Shown: positions 4,658-44,578, counted from the first letter of the stretch. The stretch is 44,578 nucleotides of DNA from Candidatus Moraniibacteriota bacterium (GCA_049289395.1 JBATLQ010000015.1:1-44578), one strand, 5' to 3'. Program-made: numbers and translations. Notes: generated by a model from the sequence alone, not told the origin.

Positions 4658-5260
4658 ATGAATAAAGGAATTTTCGTCGTAGGGGGGTTGGTCGTGGTGG
4701 CAGTAGTCGGGAGCTGGTGGTACCTCTCTTCGGAGAAGGCTATGGAAGAAAAAGCGATGATGGCGGAGAAAGCGGCTATGGAAGAGAAGGTCATGATGGA
4801 ACAGAAGGCGATGAAGGAGAAGTCCGCCGCCGATATGGCCATGCAGGAGAAAGCGGCGATGGAAAAAAAGACAGCGATGCAACAGGAGATTCCTCCTGTC
4901 ACGGGGAATGAGGCGATGATGAAGAAAGAAGAAAGCGCGATGATGATAAAAGGGGGTCAGTATATGCCCTATGATGCATCGAAGCTCGCCTTCGCGAAGG
5001 ATGGCAAGGTGGTACTCTTCTTCCGTGCATCCTGGTGTCCGACTTGTCGCGCTTTGGATGCCGATATCAAGGCGAAACTGAGTCAGATTCCGCAAAATGT
5101 ACTTATCCTCGATGTCGATTATGATAAGTACACGGATCTGAAGAAGCAGTATGGAGTGACCTATCAGCATACTTTGGTGCAGGTGGATACCTCGGGCAAT
5201 ATGATAACCAAATGGTCCGGGAGTGCGGATCTGGGTGAGCTCTTGAAGCAGGTGAAATAA
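4658..5260 (+). CDS. membrane-anchored thioredoxin-family protein with Met/Lys/Glu-rich linker
   Basis: N-terminal TM GIFVVGGLVVVAVVGSWWY, then a Met-rich low-complexity segment, then a C-terminal Trx fold with WCPTC. Confidence 0.8.
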   Translation: MNKGIFVVGGLVVVAVVGSWWYLSSEKAMEEKAMMAEKAAMEEKVMMEQKAMKEKSAADMAMQEKAAMEKKTAMQQEIPPVTGNEAMMKKEESAMMIKGGQYMPYDASKLAFAKDGKVVLFFRASWCPTCRALDADIKAKLSQIPQNVLILDVDYDKYTDLKKQYGVTYQHTLVQVDTSGNMITKWSGSADLGELLKQVK

Positions 5261-7843: not shown

Positions 7844-8005
7844 TAGACCTGTTGCCTTATAAGCTCCAGTTAAAAATGCCATCTTTCGCCATATCCTTGG
7901 GAAAATATTTTTGGCTTAGCTTCGGCTAAACAAAAAATATTTTCCCAGCGGCTCTGTCTGAAATCTGCCGATTTTTACCAAGAAGCCTATAAGGCAACAG
8001 GTCTA
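7844..8005. repeat. 162-bp foldback (MITE-like) element, copy A
   Basis: Terminal inverted repeats TAGACCTGTTGCCTTATA / TATAAGGCAACAGGTCTA. The two halves are diverged reverse complements, with a central 22-bp hairpin at 7899-7946. Starts immediately after the msrAB stop. Confidence 0.85.
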
Positions 8006-9745: not shown

Positions 9746-9907
9746 TAGACCTGTTGCCTTATAGGCTTCTTGGTAAAAATCGACAGATTTCAGACAGAGC
9801 CGATGAGAAAATATTTTTTGTTTAGCCATAGCTAAGCCAAAAATATTTTCTCAAGGATATGGCGAAAGGTGGCATTTTTAACTGGAGCTTATAAGGCAAC
9901 AGGTCTA
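9746..9907. repeat. 162-bp foldback (MITE-like) element, copy B (reverse complement of copy A)
   Basis: Hand alignment of B with the reverse complement of A gives 155/162 identical and no indels. Confidence 0.85.
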
Positions 9908-23979: not shown

Positions 23980-24026
23980 AGAAGAATAGAGAATATTGAA
24001 TTTAGAATAGAGAATGGAAGCAAACA

Positions 24027-24062
24027 ACGGTCGTTCCGCTTTTTGAGCGGTGCGACCGCTGT
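24027..24062 (+). repeat. post-stop hairpin repeat, canonical copy 1
   Basis: ACGGTCGTTCCGCTTTTTGAGCGGTGCGACCGCTGT. Stems CGGTCG/CGACCG and CCGC/GCGG surround the loop TTTTTGA. Begins 47 nt after the LysM-CHAP stop. Confidence 0.8.
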
Positions 24063-24083
24063 TTGTAAACAAGGAAAAACTGT

Positions 24084-24152: not shown

Positions 24153-24329
24153 TTAAAGGAGTCCGGCCTGACCGAAGAGGGTGAGGCTGATCACTGGCAT
24201 CAGGGCGAGGAGGAAGGCGAACGCCATTTCCTGTCCTTCTGCGTGTGCTGAACATCTCGGACATTCAGTCCCTTGACATTCGGCTGTCGATGGTGAGGAA
24301 CCATCTCCTTCTATGACGATTTCAGTCAT
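24153..24329 (-). CDS. 58-aa small protein (below the ORF-track cutoff): Cys-rich N-terminal half plus C-terminal TM
   Basis: Hand translation: MTEIVIEGDGSSPSTAECQGTECPRCSAHAEGQEMAFAFLLALMPVISLTLFGQAGLL. ATG is the first start after an in-frame TAA. The ORF is bracketed by its own promoter and terminator. Confidence 0.5.
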   Translation of the reverse strand: MTEIVIEGDGSSPSTAECQGTECPRCSAHAEGQEMAFAFLLALMPVISLTLFGQAGLL

Positions 24330-24371
24330 ATGTTTGTTTTTGCTTACGGATTAACTGTCAGATAAAAGAAA

Positions 24372-24400
24372 ACGGGAGTGCGCATGGAGCGCTCACCCGT
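24372..24400 (-). terminator. leader hairpin with T-tract (minus strand), between the promoter and the small ORF
   Basis: The minus strand reads ACGGGTGAGCGC-tccat-GCGCACTCCCGT (10 bp paired, 2 mismatches), then TTTTCTTTTAT. Confidence 0.4.
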
Positions 24401-24417
24401 TCTTTACTGACTCTATA

Positions 24418-24446
24418 AGTATACTCCAAAAAACCGGTTTTGTCAA
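24418..24446 (-). promoter_or_regulatory. promoter TTGACA-17-TATACT (minus strand)
   Basis: + strand tgtcaa at 24441-24446 and agtata at 24418-24423, with exactly 17 nt between them. Confidence 0.6.
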
Positions 24447-24491
24447 ACGGGGAGTGAGTAAGGTATGATAAGAAGGATGATACGCTGATAG

Positions 24492-24618
24492 GGTTTATAC
24501 TGGTACGGTTTCTCGACTATACCCTGCCCGCCCGAATCGCTACGAATCGTTGCGGGCGGGCTCATCCGAAGACGGACTGCGCTGCGAGGTAGTCTTAAAA
24601 CTCGTACCAGTATAAACC
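24492..24618 (+). repeat. structured repeat (candidate RNA element), copy 1, in the cysS upstream region
   Basis: 16-bp perfect closing helix GGTTTATACTGGTACG / CGTACCAGTATAAACC. It encloses a core shared with 30836-30890 plus a nested GC hairpin at 24526-24560. Confidence 0.65.
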
Positions 24619-24651: not shown

Positions 24652-26004
24652 ATGACTCAGAAAATCTACAATACTCTGTCGCAGAAGATAGAACCCCTGG
24701 AGACAATGACTCCCGGGAGGATTAATTTCTTCGTGTGCGGACCGACGGTGTATGATATGCCACACTTGGGACATGCGAAGACCTATGTGCAGTTCGATAT
24801 GATGGTGAAATACCTGCGCCTGCGTGGCTTCGAAGTTTTCTACCTGCAGAACATCACCGATATCGATGACAAGATTATTGCGAGGGCGACGGAACAGGGA
24901 ATCGGTTGGGAGGCGCTCGCACGGAAATTCGAAAGTGTCTATCTCGAGGATATGAAAGCGCTCCATGTGAATGCTGTATCGAAGTATATCCGCTCGACGG
25001 ACTATATCGAGGAGGTGGTATCTCAGGTGGAGCGACTCATGGAACAGGGATTTGCTTACCGGACGAGTGATGGGATCTATTTCGAGATCGCGAAATTTGC
25101 CGATTATGGGAAACTCTCGAAGCGGGGTGAAGTGAAGAAAGACGATGCGGTATCCCGTATCGATGCAAGTAGTGAGAAACGGGGTTGGAATGATTTTTGT
25201 CTCTGGAAGCAATCGAAGGAGGGGGAACCGAGCTGGGAGACTCGTATCGGAATTGGTCGGCCGGGCTGGCATATCGAGGATACCGCCATGACGGAGAAAT
25301 TTTTCGGTCCGCAATACGATATCCACGGTGGGGCGATAGACCTCATTTTCCCGCATCACGAAGCTGAATTGACCCAGATGGAGGCACTCTCCGGGAAGTC
25401 GCCCTTCGTCCGGTATTGGATGCATACGGGGTTCCTCAATATCGATTCGGAGAAGATGAGCAAGAGCAAGGGGAATTTCAAGACGATCCGTGAGGCACTG
25501 GTGGAATATGATTACCGGGTACTCCGACTCTTCTTCCTCTCCGCGCAGTATCGTTCCATGATGGACTTCTCGAAGAAGGCTCTGATGCAGGCGAAGAATA
25601 CGCTCACGAGTATCGATGAGTTCGTGTTCCGTATCGAGCGTGACTCTGATGATGTGGAGAATGAATTGGTAGTCGCGAAACTTCGCGAAGAAATTATTTC
25701 CGCGATGGACAATGATTTCAATACGCCACAAGTATTCGCATCACTGTTTGACTTCATGAAGGCGCAGTCGGGAAAGAATTCTGGGAAGCGCGTTTTTGCA
25801 TTGTTTCAGGAGCTTCAATCATTCCTCGATATCTTCCAATTGGAAGGGGATTCGGAGGATGAAGAAATTGAGAAGCTCATCGAAAAGCGGAATGCCTACC
25901 GGGCGGAAGGGAATTATGCAAAGGCCGATGCTATCCGTGATCAGCTCCTCGCCATGGGAGTGAAGCTGTATGACGAAGACGGGAAGACAAAGTACAGAAG
26001 ATAG
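24652..26004 (+). CDS. cysS: cysteine--tRNA ligase
   Basis: HIGH-type motif HLGHAKTY, KMSKS motif EKMSKSKGN, N-terminus MTQKIYNTLSQK. SD GAGGGAAAGG upstream of ATG 24652. Confidence 0.95.
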   Translation: MTQKIYNTLSQKIEPLETMTPGRINFFVCGPTVYDMPHLGHAKTYVQFDMMVKYLRLRGFEVFYLQNITDIDDKIIARATEQGIGWEALARKFESVYLEDMKALHVNAVSKYIRSTDYIEEVVSQVERLMEQGFAYRTSDGIYFEIAKFADYGKLSKRGEVKKDDAVSRIDASSEKRGWNDFCLWKQSKEGEPSWETRIGIGRPGWHIEDTAMTEKFFGPQYDIHGGAIDLIFPHHEAELTQMEALSGKSPFVRYWMHTGFLNIDSEKMSKSKGNFKTIREALVEYDYRVLRLFFLSAQYRSMMDFSKKALMQAKNTLTSIDEFVFRIERDSDDVENELVVAKLREEIISAMDNDFNTPQVFASLFDFMKAQSGKNSGKRVFALFQELQSFLDIFQLEGDSEDEEIEKLIEKRNAYRAEGNYAKADAIRDQLLAMGVKLYDEDGKTKYRR

Positions 26005-26047
26005 AGATGAGGGAATAGAATTTAGAAATCAAAGTGTGCTTTGAGGA

Positions 26048-26082
26048 GCGGTTGTTCCGCTTTTTGAGCGGTGCAACCGCTA
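26048..26082 (+). repeat. post-stop hairpin repeat, copy 2
   Basis: GCGGTTGTTCCGCTTTTTGAGCGGTGCAACCGCTA. The outer stem is CGGTTG/CAACCG, a compensated variant of CGGTCG/CGACCG. Begins 43 nt after the cysS stop. Confidence 0.8.
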
Positions 26083-26212
26083 TTTGAATTAATTTTCTTT
26101 GGTGGTCTTTTTGTATTGTGGATGCTCGTTGTTTGTGTTACTATGGATAGTACGGATGTTATATTGTCCGTTTTTGCAGTATCTTATCAACCAAAATCGA
26201 GGAGTTGACGAA

Positions 26213-28588: not shown

Positions 28589-28602
28589 TTGGATTTTTCA
28601 TA

Positions 28603-28638
28603 ACGGTCGTTCCGCTTTTTGAGCGGTGCGACCGCTGT
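28603..28638 (+). repeat. post-stop hairpin repeat, copy 3
   Basis: 36/36 identical to copy 1. Begins 14 nt after the typA stop. Confidence 0.8.
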
Positions 28639-28660
28639 GAAAAATTTCAAGATCAAGAAA

Positions 28661-28695: not shown

Positions 28696-28716
28696 AAAAT
28701 CCTCTGTTTTGCGCGA

Positions 28717-28770
28717 GCGGTCGTTCCCCTCCAAAGGCGGGCAAGCGCTTTTGGAGGGGTTTGCCCTGTG
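28717..28770 (+). repeat. variant of the hairpin repeat with a different inner hairpin
   Basis: GCGGTCGTTCC, then CCCTCCAAA..GCGCTTTTGGAGGGG (10-bp stem). GCGCTTTTGGAGGGGT is shared with 44555-44570. Confidence 0.6.
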
Positions 28771-28794
28771 AAATCTTTCTATATTCCACTGGAG

Positions 28795-28866
28795 TGCGAC
28801 CGCCCGCCCGCAATGATTCGCAATCCCGCCCTGGCGGGAGTAGCGATTCGGGCAGGCTGTTTTTTG
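28795..28866. repeat. GC-rich nested palindromic module, inverted relative to 24522-24560
   Basis: Its reverse complement shares CCTGCCC, GAATCGCTAC, GAATC and TTGCGGGCGGG with 24522-24560. It carries an extra hairpin CCCGCC-ct-GGCGGG and is followed by six T. Confidence 0.55.
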
Positions 28867-30663: not shown

Positions 30664-30721
30664 TAGAAAATAACGGTTAAACCCTTGTATGAGTGCGAGC
30701 GGTTGTTTCCTATTTTTCACA

Positions 30722-30757
30722 ACGGTCACTCCGCTTTTTGAGCGGTGTGTCCGCTGT
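30722..30757 (+). repeat. post-stop hairpin repeat, copy 4 (diverged arms)
   Basis: ACGGTCACTCCGCTTTTTGAGCGGTGTGTCCGCTGT, 58 nt after the ATPase stop. An inverted half-copy GGTTGCACCGCTCAAAAA lies at 30783-30800. Confidence 0.7.
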
Positions 30758-30818
30758 GATAAAATCATCGTAATAAAGCAAGTGGTTGCACCGCTCAAAA
30801 AATATGTGCAGGGGAATA

Positions 30819-30903
30819 CCGATTCATCCACATTTCTCAACCATACCCTGCTCGTCCGAAGACGGACTGCGCTGCGAGGTGGTCTTAAAATGTGATGAAT
30901 CGG
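30819..30903 (+). repeat. structured repeat (candidate RNA element), copy 2
   Basis: Closing helix CCGATTCATCCACATTT / AAATGTGATGAATCGG (16 bp, one bulged C) around a core matching 24512-24526 plus 24561-24600. Confidence 0.65.
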
Positions 30904-30993
30904 TGTTCTATGATAAAAGGAGAAACAAAAAGACTGGCGCGCAGCCAGTCTTTTTTCTATTCTACATTCCCTATTCTATATTCATTCCTCCCC

Positions 30994-33023: not shown

Positions 33024-33043
33024 TGACAAACAATTTCCAATGA

Positions 33044-33071
33044 TCAATTCTCAATTCTCAATTCTCAATCA
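33044..33071. repeat. heptamer tandem repeat (TCAATTC x3 plus TCAATCA)
   Basis: Read directly: tcaattc tcaattc tcaattc tcaatca. Confidence 0.8.
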
Positions 33072-33262
33072 ATGATTCAGTGATACAATTATTAGACAAT
33101 GTTCATAAAACACAAAACATCAAAACACAAAGACCAAACAAAACACAAAACACAGTTTTCAAACAATACGCTTTCTTCATTTGATTCATTGAAACATTGA
33201 AAATTGTTTAGAAATTATCTTCTCATCCCTCATCCAATATCCAATATCTATTATCTCCTCCT

Positions 33263-35743: not shown

Positions 35744-36538
35744 ATGGGTCTCATCGGACTGCTTATCACGGTACTTCTCATGATCCTCGGAGCGGGGTAT
35801 TTTCTGTTTGGTACTTCGAGTGGACCGATTACGCTGGAGAATAAGAATACAGAACAACCATCCGTCGCGGATATAACGACGGGTGCGGGAGAGATCGCGC
35901 GGTATCAGGCAATCCGGGATCAAGCGCAGGGAGTCAGTAAACAGGTAACAGAAAACAGTAAACAATTAGCAGAAAGCATAGAACAGGGGATAGCAAACAG
36001 CGAACAAGGAACAGTCAAAACAGCGGTCGTTCCGCTTTCGAGCGGTGCATCCGCTGTTGGGAAGGAAAAAACAGATTTGAACATTATCGACCGGAAAGTG
36101 GATTTCGGATTCGGCGTTCCGAAAGAGAAGCGAATGATTGATACGGTCGTACTCCACTCATCCTATAACTCCATAGGGGGCGACCCATACTCGGTGAACA
36201 AGGTAATAGATATTTGGCGGGGATATAGTGTCGCACCACATTACATGATCGATCGGAAGGGGAATATCTATCGTCTCGTCGATGACGCGAATATTGCCTA
36301 TCATGCGGGTGTGTCGAAACTGCCGGATGGGCGGACGAATGTGAATGATTTCTCCATTGGTATCGAGATCCTGAATACGAAGGAGGACAAGTATACGGAG
36401 GCAGAGTATGACGCGGTGAATACTCTCATCGCATACCTCCGCGGAAAATACAGTATCAAGCAAGTCGTCGGTCACGCCGACATCGCCCCGGGGAGGAAGG
36501 ATGACCCGTGGCATTTTAACTGGAAACAGTTAAAATGA
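35744..36538 (+). CDS. membrane-anchored N-acetylmuramoyl-L-alanine amidase (Amidase_2/PGRP type)
   Basis: N-terminal TM LIGLLITVLLMILGAGYFLF, a linker, then HYMIDRKGNIYRLV, AYHAG, NDFSIGIEILN and VVGHADIAPGRKDDP. Confidence 0.8.
   Translation: MGLIGLLITVLLMILGAGYFLFGTSSGPITLENKNTEQPSVADITTGAGEIARYQAIRDQAQGVSKQVTENSKQLAESIEQGIANSEQGTVKTAVVPLSSGASAVGKEKTDLNIIDRKVDFGFGVPKEKRMIDTVVLHSSYNSIGGDPYSVNKVIDIWRGYSVAPHYMIDRKGNIYRLVDDANIAYHAGVSKLPDGRTNVNDFSIGIEILNTKEDKYTEAEYDAVNTLIAYLRGKYSIKQVVGHADIAPGRKDDPWHFNWKQLK
36020..36057 (+). repeat. copy of the hairpin repeat embedded in-frame in the amidase linker
   Basis: ACAGCGGTCGTTCCGCTTTCGAGCGGTGCATCCGCTGT. The loop is TTTCGA instead of TTTTTGA, which removes the TGA. 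Translated as TAVVPLSSGASAV. Confidence 0.65.
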
Positions 36539-36553
36539 AAACACAAAAATGAA

Positions 36554-36654
36554 AAACACAAAGTCCAAACAAAACACAGGAAACAAAACTTAAAACAAGA
36601 GAGTTTGTGATTTTTGGAAATTGAAATTTGTGTTTTGTTTGGTTTTTGTGCTTT
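36554..36654. repeat. long imperfect hairpin with CA-rich and TG-rich arms
   Basis: Arms of about 26 bp, AAACACAAAGTCCAAACAAAACACA / TGTGTTTTGTTTGGTTTTTGTGCTTT (2 mismatches, 1 wobble), with a 49-nt loop. An arm homolog lies at 33104-33150. Confidence 0.65.
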
Positions 36655-36668
36655 GATGATTGTGTTTT

Positions 36669-44527: not shown

Positions 44528-44578
44528 ACGGTCATTCCCTGCCTACCGGCAGGCAGGCGCTTTTGGAGGGGTGCGACC
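44528..44578 (+). repeat. variant of the hairpin repeat, 16 nt after the rpoC stop and cut by the window end
   Basis: ACGGTCATTCC ... GCGCTTTTGGAGGGGTGCGACC. The outer arms match the canonical copies; the insert is related to 28717-28770. Confidence 0.55.

Follow-up and report, generated by a model that had tools for sequence, protein, structure and literature searches.

The window analyzed here, a single stretch of DNA of 44,578 nucleotides, contains the same short core sequence at two places, each time enclosed by a long helix whose sequence is unrelated to that of the other. The question that this arrangement raises is what kind of element keeps its interior while its closing stem is free to vary. 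The first-pass annotation had offered two answers, a functional RNA with a covarying closing stem or a small element that inserts into the loops of pre-existing hairpins. Our comparison with related loci leads to a tentative formulation, to which we assign a probability of roughly 40%: The element may be a selected, clade-specific structured 5′ leader element of cysS in a genus-level, Moranbacteria-like group of CPR bacteria, which is occasionally duplicated. As far as sequence comparison can tell, there is a clear signature of selection at a fixed locus, made up of two invariant blocks and compensated helices, with no corresponding Rfam family.

The two copies, hereafter W1 and W2, lie where they had been reported (Table 1). 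The core that they share proved to be 58 rather than 55 nt long, as it begins 3 nt further 5′ (TTTCTC...), and its 15-mer is identical at 13 of 15 positions instead of the 12 counted before. The 3′ part of this module is identical at 39 of 41 positions (95%), and exactly two occurrences of the 26-mer TCCGAAGACGGACTGCGCTGCGAGGT were counted in the window, where 0 would be expected (100 shuffles). Written as a two-block pattern, the core reads CCCTGCTC-N(8-60)-YTGCGCTGCGAG. The P1 arms of W1 and W2 show no similarity, BLAST of the two regions matches the interior alone, and the W2 arms have no second occurrence in the window or in the relatives' loci compared. Unrelated inverted repeats of 16 to 21 bp thus clamp the two copies, and an inverted-repeat search independently recovered the W1 arms of Table 1 as well as those of W2 (30814-30828 / 30894-30908). 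The description of both clamps as 16-bp helices holds for W1, which pairs at all 16 positions and has additional outer pairs beyond them, and needs correction for W2, where the helix contains one bulged C and extends outward to ~21 bp. Both strands of W1 and W2 folded far better than shuffled sequences (z = -5.4 to -8.0). No direct repeat of the kind left by target duplication was visible at the flanks of W1 or W2, which, together with the unrelated termini, argues that the element is not a classical terminal-repeat transposon.

Table 1. Positions of the two copies and of neighboring features, counted from the first nucleotide of the window.
Feature	Position	Strand	Description
D2 copies (hairpin repeat at gene ends)	24017-24068, 26038-26089, 28593-28644, 30712-30763, 36021-36060		
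D2 variants	28716-28804, 44528-44566		
Predicted sigma-70-type promoter TTGTCA-18-TATGAT	24440..24469	+	Reads through W1 into cysS
Copy 1 (W1), entire clamped element	24492..24618	unassigned	Covariance model R1, E = 1.5e-13
W1 P1 5′ arm GGTTTATACTGGTACG	24492..24507		16/16 complementary to 24603-24618
W1 module 5′ half TTTCTCGACTATACCCTG	24509..24526		Contains P2 5′ strand GACTA (24515-24519) and invariant CCCTG (24522-24526)
W1 nested GC-rich hairpin	24527..24560		Between CCCTG and CTC of W1; inverted-repeat search (24526-24561)
W1 module 3′ half	24561..24600		P3 CTC/GAG and P4 hairpin (24564-24577); invariant TGCGCTGCGAG (24578-24588); P2 3′ strand TAGTC (24590-24594)
W1 P1 3′ arm CGTACCAGTATAAACC	24603..24618		Inverted-repeat partner of 24492-24507
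cysS (cysteinyl-tRNA synthetase)	24652..26004	+	Pfam tRNA-synt_1e, E = 5.9e-109
Inverted partial D2 beside W2	30783..30801		18/18 match to 26078-26061
Copy 2 (W2), entire clamped element	30814..30908		Convergent spacer past P-type ATPase gene; R1, E = 1.2e-20
W2 58-nt module	30833..30890		Invariant CCCTGCTC (30846-30853), P4 (30854-30867), invariant TGCGCTGCGAG (30868-30878)
Bidirectional intrinsic terminator (prediction)	30927..30955	both	21 nt past W2

The genomic contexts of the two copies, a cysS leader and a convergent spacer, are as the first-pass annotation had given them. W1 has the predicted cysS promoter on its 5′ side and the ribosome-binding site of that gene on its 3′ side, with the ATG of cysS (24652) 33 nt past its end. 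A predicted minus-strand promoter (24446-24418) stands back to back with the cysS promoter; the pair is also found in L005 and L025, and the promoter, which in three lineages is predicted to read through the element, is invariant in the leader alignment. Since a conserved promoter is predicted on the plus strand only, W1 is placed, as a prediction, in the 5′ untranslated region of cysS. W2 lies between the stop codon of a P-type ATPase gene (30663) and a convergent gene for a 78-aa ElaB/DUF883-like protein, upstream of a terminator that is conserved in L028 and L035, both of which lack copy 2.

We compared the cysS regions of eight relatives with the window. By its CysS homologues, the window falls in the CPR/Patescibacteria, with Candidatus Moranbacteria as the nearest named relative (88% identity), in a tight clade at 85-90% identity that is followed by a gap down to 64%. 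The core was present in the cysS leader of the window and of L004, which is the same species, and of L003, L024, L025, L005, and L010, i.e., in four of the six lineages sampled from the clade (CysS identities of 86-90%); the leader copy is old. Neither CCCTGCTC nor TGCGCTGCGAG varies among the core-bearing leaders, yet the spacers on either side are unalignable, and the promoter alone is as conserved as these two blocks. The comparison shows a mark of selection, in that the blocks and the pairing were held in place as the neighboring spacers diverged past alignment. The P1 helix of L025 (GGGTTATTTCTGTTGGCATG) is recognizably homologous to that of W1, and where the two differ by a substitution or an indel, the other arm mirrors the change.

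Two members of the same clade, L006 and L008 (the former being sister to the core-bearing L025), lack the core, and an unrelated long hairpin occupies the corresponding place in each of their leaders; the element is therefore dispensable or replaceable. Both of these hairpins are very stable (L006 1690-1765, -59 kcal/mol on the plus and -44 on the minus strand; L008 5905-6015, -62 and -58 kcal/mol), and the interval from promoter to ribosome-binding site of cysS seems always to hold some long hairpin. In the nearest outgroup, cysS starts 17 nt past a Fic gene and has no leader. The L024 leader (2340-2500) is W1-like in its 5′ half, including the same nested hairpin; its 3′ arm resembles L025 and its P2 is for this reason unable to pair. 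This leader, from a contig at 2.7x coverage, could be a chimeric assembly or a copy in decay.

In its anatomy, the element combines a long closing helix (P1-P1b-P2), in which the sequence is free and the pairing is kept, with an asymmetric junction of two invariant blocks (UWCCCUG|CUC and UGCGCUG|CGAG on the plus strand). This junction is capped by a fast-evolving hairpin, P4, and tolerates an extra hairpin at one point. Pairs were counted in a six-sequence alignment that left out L024. Helices P1, P2, and P4 were compensated, with 9 of 18 pairs changed on both sides as compared with 4.0 +/- 1.3 in shuffles; the observed number was matched in 0 of 500 shuffles on the minus strand and 1 of 500 on the plus strand. 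For double-changed cells and the covariation score, the observed values were reached by no shuffle on either strand, and in slid controls ~40% of cells were paired. The many double changes, taken with the poor pairing of the slid controls, imply that selection or a palindrome-maintaining process keeps the helices, and that the two unpaired blocks are kept by selection. P4 changes at all 5 pairs, with plus-strand arms GTCCG/CGGAC, GTCCA/CGGAC, GCCCA/CAGGC, and AGTTC/GAACT and, in the working alignment, loop lengths of 4 to 7 nt (AAGA, AATAAATC, CACTAAAGTCA, and GGGAAAT). The P2 arms read GACTA/TAGTC, AACCA/TGGTC, AATCA/CGATT, and GACC/GGTC across the orthologues. Compensatory changes in independent lineages, as they characterize a structured RNA, are thus seen here, in a set of only about four such lineages. 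Template switching during replication of DNA palindromes can mimic compensatory or mirrored changes without any selection on RNA (PMC8794818).

These data bear on several structural proposals of the first-pass annotation. That the interior is conserved and the closing stem free is borne out by both copies and by the orthologues, and the covariation of the closing stem, now extended to the compensated P1, P2, and P4, lends partial support to its functional-RNA reading. The hairpin (G)TCCG-AAGA-CGGA(C) within the core is real and covaries completely. The pseudoknot between its AAGA loop and a downstream TCTT is not supported by the comparison: The loop is not conserved, two of the four target bases are already paired in P2, and its support is no better than chance in A/T-rich sequence. 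An alternative register of P2 (TACC/GGTA) was rejected because it is not kept in L005, and coding of a small peptide was rejected because indels in P4 and in the nested hairpin break every reading frame. As a separate observation, L005 and L010, whose CysS proteins are 98% identical, differ in the P4 region (GTCCAATAAATCGGAC versus GCCCACTAAAGTCAGGC) at ~6 positions within 16-17 nt and in the rest of the ~100-nt element at ~3 positions; P4 is a local hot spot of change.

Copy 2 has a different history. Its region is identical to the window in same-species contigs, and copy 2 is absent from the orthologous convergent spacer of L035, L028-30, and L031-34, the closest other relatives by the 78-aa gene (92% identity for L035 and 86% for the latter two groups). 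The terminator is present in the spacers of all these relatives, and a gene-end repeat, D2, also in those of L035 and L028-30, without the core. Copy 2 is young, a lineage-specific gain. Its core matches L003 at 43 of 44 positions and W1 at 39 of 41, i.e., equally closely, and looks like the core of this lineage without a nested hairpin. Beside W2 lies an inverted partial D2, a sign that this spacer underwent rearrangement at or after the arrival of copy 2. In a comparison with the empty site, the relatives' spacers of 7-31 nt could not be aligned to the ~170-nt insert of the window (shuffle p = 0.5), and none of the spacers in L035, L028-30, and L031-34 contains a hairpin at this site. The proposed insertion of hairpins into hairpins is real for the nested GC hairpin of W1; the stem of W2 may have existed before the insertion or been made with it. 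In searches with R1 (filters off), no further copy was found in the window and related loci (92 kb and 52 kb), and W2 is the only copy outside of a cysS leader in all related DNA searched. The earlier conclusion that the element is not gene-specific is weakened, since the sole conserved copy is that of the cysS leader and copy 2 is a lineage-specific gain.

The GC-rich hairpin at a single point of the W1 core was correctly recognized, and it belongs to a separate family of mini-hairpin repeats, GCCCGCCCG...CGGGC(G/A)GGC, which occur in either orientation inside other hairpins. Its other copies (window 28802-28860 and L024 1863-1900) are both in the orientation opposite to that in W1; the L024 copy sits inside a D2 repeat, while the one at 28802-28860 itself holds a further hairpin, ATCCCGCCCTGGCGGGAG, so that hairpins are nested three deep immediately upstream of the ATPase promoter. 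In L003, a different hairpin is nested in the core at the same point as in W1. The recurrence of nested hairpins inside other hairpins indicates that this genome assembles hairpins from exchangeable modules. This L003 hairpin (490-511) is small and consists of a 22-mer, CCCTGCCTACCGGCAGGCAGGC, with a second occurrence at 44537-44560 at the end of the window, where a D2-like scaffold surrounds it; the CCCTGC of the core itself doubles as its 5′ arm, and inverted copying or microhomology-guided insertion would fit its origin.

D2 itself is a hairpin repeat of ~37 nt, AACGGTCGTTCCGCTTTTTGAGCGGTGCGACCGCTGT, found 5-50 nt past the stop codons of consecutive plus-strand genes, among them those for LysM-CHAP, cysS, bipA, and the ATPase. 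It has no U-tail, is conserved in L028, L035, and L024, and is in some copies enlarged by inserted mini-hairpins; it may be a gene-end, terminator, or REP-like element of this lineage. A further repeat, the 162-nt pair at 7844-8005 and 9746-9907, is MITE-like: Each member has a 50-nt palindrome at its center and ends in terminal inverted repeats of 22 nt (TAGACCTGTTGCCTTATAAGCT). The two members have opposite internal orientation and flank the cbiM gene and a phasin-like ORF. This pair is an ordinary MITE with conserved termini, unlike the cysS-leader element.

Database searches assigned the element to no known family. A comparison with Rfam, which had been proposed, was run with release 15 and matched no family at gathering score over the whole window; at E <= 10, nothing matched over the element in W1 or W2. 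The matches at E <= 10 in the W2 region fell on the terminator or were weak generic-hairpin matches far below gathering score, and those of L025 and L005 amounted to noise from generic miRNA hairpins, scoring 15-20 bits where the gathering scores are 60-100. An exact search of genome and metagenome contigs with the 21-mer AAGACGGACTGCGCTGCGAGG returned two chance matches in high-GC coding DNA and one orthologue (L003); since this 21-mer spans the variable P4, the scan could find close copies only. In viral contigs, two gapped core patterns gave 0 matches and 13 high-GC chance matches; R1 rejected all 13 but one weak partial match (E = 0.045) in DNA of 74% GC, which is counted as chance. blastn against phage and plasmid collections gave no match, and a concatenated six-frame translation of the module, used to pick up spurious ORFs across other copies, yielded a single candidate in the protein collection and no scored hit.

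The position of W1 calls to mind the leader RNAs of aminoacyl-tRNA synthetase genes, and a T-box riboswitch is the usual cysS leader in Firmicutes. Like the T-box (RF00230) and the E. coli thrS operator, the element is structured, lies between promoter and start codon, and displays conserved unpaired nucleotides on a long stem. Unlike them, it has no T-box sequence, no K-turn/specifier arrangement, no plus-strand terminator, and no mimic of an anticodon loop, and it is confined to one small clade in which it can be replaced. The T-box search accordingly gave no RF00230 match, no terminator between the element and cysS, and no conserved T-box bulge; UGC triplets do occur in the invariant block. 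At E <= 10, none of the Rfam models for hammerhead, twister, twister-sister, pistol, hatchet, or HDV-like ribozymes matched either strand, and a CUGANGA...GAAA core was not seen in the element sequence. Resemblances to SRP domain IV, 6S RNA, and CRISPR repeats were rejected on the defining features of each.

Among repeats, the ERIC/IRU and REP/BIME elements of enterobacteria are imperfect palindromes of ~40-130 nt in transcribed intergenic regions, present in tens to hundreds of copies whose stems and termini are conserved from copy to copy. Compared by description rather than by sequence, the element shares with them long RNA hairpins in untranslated regions, a mosaic modular make-up, patchy presence among related strains, and extra blocks at fixed internal sites in some copies. 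It differs in its unrelated stems, its invariant interior, and its one or two copies per ~45 kb. Of the specific REP/REPIN features, stem sequence conservation, the GTAG motif, and an HUH or transposase gene in the window are all missing. Classical MITEs (Correia, RUP, and the 162-nt pair of the window) are likewise small, non-coding, hairpin-forming, duplicated, and intergenic, and the element departs from them in having neither terminal inverted repeats conserved between copies nor a target-site duplication, for both of which we tested. An integron attC site was rejected, as the box-like TCTCAAC/GTTGAGA of W2 is not kept in W1, L005, or L025; the neighboring integrase is a 307-aa XerC/D-type protein in conserved synteny that also occurs in L008, which lacks the core. 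The nested GC hairpin of W1, as distinct from the core module, resembles the mobile GC clusters or double-hairpin elements of fungal mitochondrial genomes, GC-rich palindromes that insert into hairpins and structured RNAs in either orientation, though these belong to a different domain and have no sequence relation to it. TIGR units, which occur in parasitic bacteria including Patescibacteria, also have palindromic stems that vary from unit to unit around conserved short interior motifs, and form tandem arrays beside a Nop-domain Tas gene, with variable spacers between box C/D motifs of 2-3 nt (PMC12045711). The element is like them in that flanking stems vary while interior motifs stay. A TIGR array was nevertheless rejected: The copies are two, solitary, and 6.3 kb apart, their interior is conserved as a whole, and none of the 19 window proteins scanned matched a Nop domain.

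The strand on which the element acts is a question of its own. The first-pass annotation had read it on the plus strand, yet the minus strand pairs better, with 94 Watson-Crick, 11 G.U, and 3 mismatch cells, as opposed to 94, 1, and 13 on the plus strand (97.2% versus 88.0% of cells paired). RNAalifold gave -20.9 kcal/mol for the minus and -12.8 for the plus strand, and the isolated L005 element -41.9 and -27.4 kcal/mol, respectively. In longer stretches of L005 and L010, the long hairpin did not form on the plus strand at all. On the minus strand, purines face purines in the internal loop of the closing helix (AA/GA or GA/GA). A regional mutation bias was rejected as the cause of the asymmetry because the hairpins of L006 and L008 favor the plus strand and GC skew is positive on the plus strand. 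These observations are suggestive in favor of the minus strand. They would fit an antisense or independent small RNA, or a signal in single-stranded DNA, that displays GCAGCGCA and CAGGGWA as unpaired blocks beside the purine-purine loop of its closing helix. We regard this as unlikely, however. No conserved minus-strand promoter into W1 or W2 was predicted (the sole candidate, 24779-24752, is absent in L005 and L025), and no minus-strand terminator was found past the element. Counted as independent events, the asymmetry shrinks to a suggestive but non-significant ~6:1 in the core and ~9:3 once the outer helices are included, and in W1, W2, and L025 the energies of the two strands differ by just 0.7-3.5 kcal/mol. 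This strand paradox makes the locus a useful test case for distinguishing selection on RNA structure from palindrome maintenance at the level of DNA.

The main rival does without a host function altogether. The element could be a selfish modular hairpin repeat of the REP/BIME or ERIC kind, one among a set of small palindromes that multiply and insert into each other, with closing helices that are built or perfected by template switching from the flanks and an interior that is recognized by a mobilizing enzyme. The window is indeed full of such modules (D2 with its mosaic variants, GC mini-hairpins, and the MITE-like pair), and the GC mini-hairpin is nested in W1, in D2 copies, and in itself. 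The recent arrival of copy 2 next to an inverted partial D2, the other hairpins at the same leader position in L006 and L008, the different hairpins nested at the same point in W1 and L003, and the mirrored indels of P1 would all follow, given that template switching can create as well as repair stems (PMC8794818). A dead copy should decay evenly, though, and at the orthologous site two blocks are invariant between saturated spacers. Moreover, a single non-cysS copy was found in all related DNA searched with R1, the 44.6-kb window encodes no transposase, RAYT, or other candidate mobilizing enzyme, the termini are not conserved and no target was duplicated, and no pre-existing or empty hairpin could be demonstrated at the copy-2 site. 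On balance we hold a purely selfish repeat to be somewhat less probable than the leader reading. Far less probable, and in our estimate a long shot, is a new small catalytic or sensing RNA, i.e., a self-cleaving ribozyme in which P1 varies and one stem is optional, or a leader that responds to tRNA(Cys), cysteine, or CysRS through the two UGC triplets of the invariant bulge. Its appeal lies in a typical architecture (invariant junction, covarying helices, optional stem, and variable capping hairpin), in the two Cys codons of the invariant block UGCGCUGCGAG, which are GCA anticodon triplets on the other strand, and in the location in a cysS leader. Against this weigh the ribozyme and T-box searches, empty even at E = 10, the missing CUGANGA/GAAA core, T-box sequence, and terminator/anti-terminator, and the failure to find a conserved pairing with the ribosome-binding site. 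Moreover, L006, L008, and the outgroup lack the element, and copy 2 precedes no gene.

We thus return to a selected cysS leader element as the preferred reading. It draws on the invariant blocks and promoter that stayed in place between unalignable spacers, on the covariation and the mirrored P1 of W1 and L025, on a low copy number centered on cysS, on the lack of copy 2 in the closest relatives, and on the lack of an Rfam match. It is strained by the better pairing of the minus strand, by the element-free L006, L008, and outgroup, by the unrelated context of copy 2, and by the small number of about four independent lineages, in which template switching can mimic covariation (PMC8794818). According to this leader reading, the element would be transcribed within the cysS mRNA from the conserved upstream promoter and act in cis. 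The invariant single-stranded blocks would present a recognition surface for a trans factor, either protein or RNA, and the 25-30-bp helix would determine stability or processing, as an RNase III substrate or a 5′ stem-loop might. The 58-nt module could be copied elsewhere, and copy 2 would be a recent duplicate, now in the 3′ untranslated region of the ATPase gene, that may have no function of its own.

To our knowledge, almost no non-coding RNAs or repeat biology have been characterized in CPR/Patescibacteria, and we know of no T-boxes described there. A cis-acting cysS leader, if true, would represent a new control of an aminoacyl-tRNA synthetase in these organisms. If the module instead spreads with freshly built stems, the locus would, together with the nested GC hairpins and the mosaic gene-end hairpins of the same genome, document the assembly and exchange of hairpins in reduced genomes. 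It is improbable, in our judgment, that the element is the first example of a new class, be it a CPR-specific small functional RNA or a miniature mobile element recognized by its interior. As an RNA, such a class would comprise a ribozyme or a leader responsive to tRNA(Cys) or CysRS via the invariant UGC-GC-UGC bulge; as a mobile element, it would template its closing stem anew from the flank at each insertion, which, if true, would invert the logic of MITEs and REPs.

Several other features of the window were seen in passing. Divergent from cysS, a conserved 58-aa Cys-rich ORF with a C-terminal membrane anchor (24153-24329, minus strand) is read from a promoter back to back with that of cysS; right past the predicted start, its leader (~24362-24411) has a 13-bp hairpin with a U-run behind it, an arrangement reminiscent of an attenuator or a short RNA. 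Two A-rich intergenic regions (33028-33209 and 36538-36668) contain CAAAACA-type repeats and long imperfect inverted repeats with arms of 15-26 nt. At 4724-4888, tandem 18-nt coding repeats similar to ATGGAAGAGAAGGCGATG, rich in Met, Glu, Lys, and Ala, lie at the start of an ORF with a thioredoxin domain (4658-5260).
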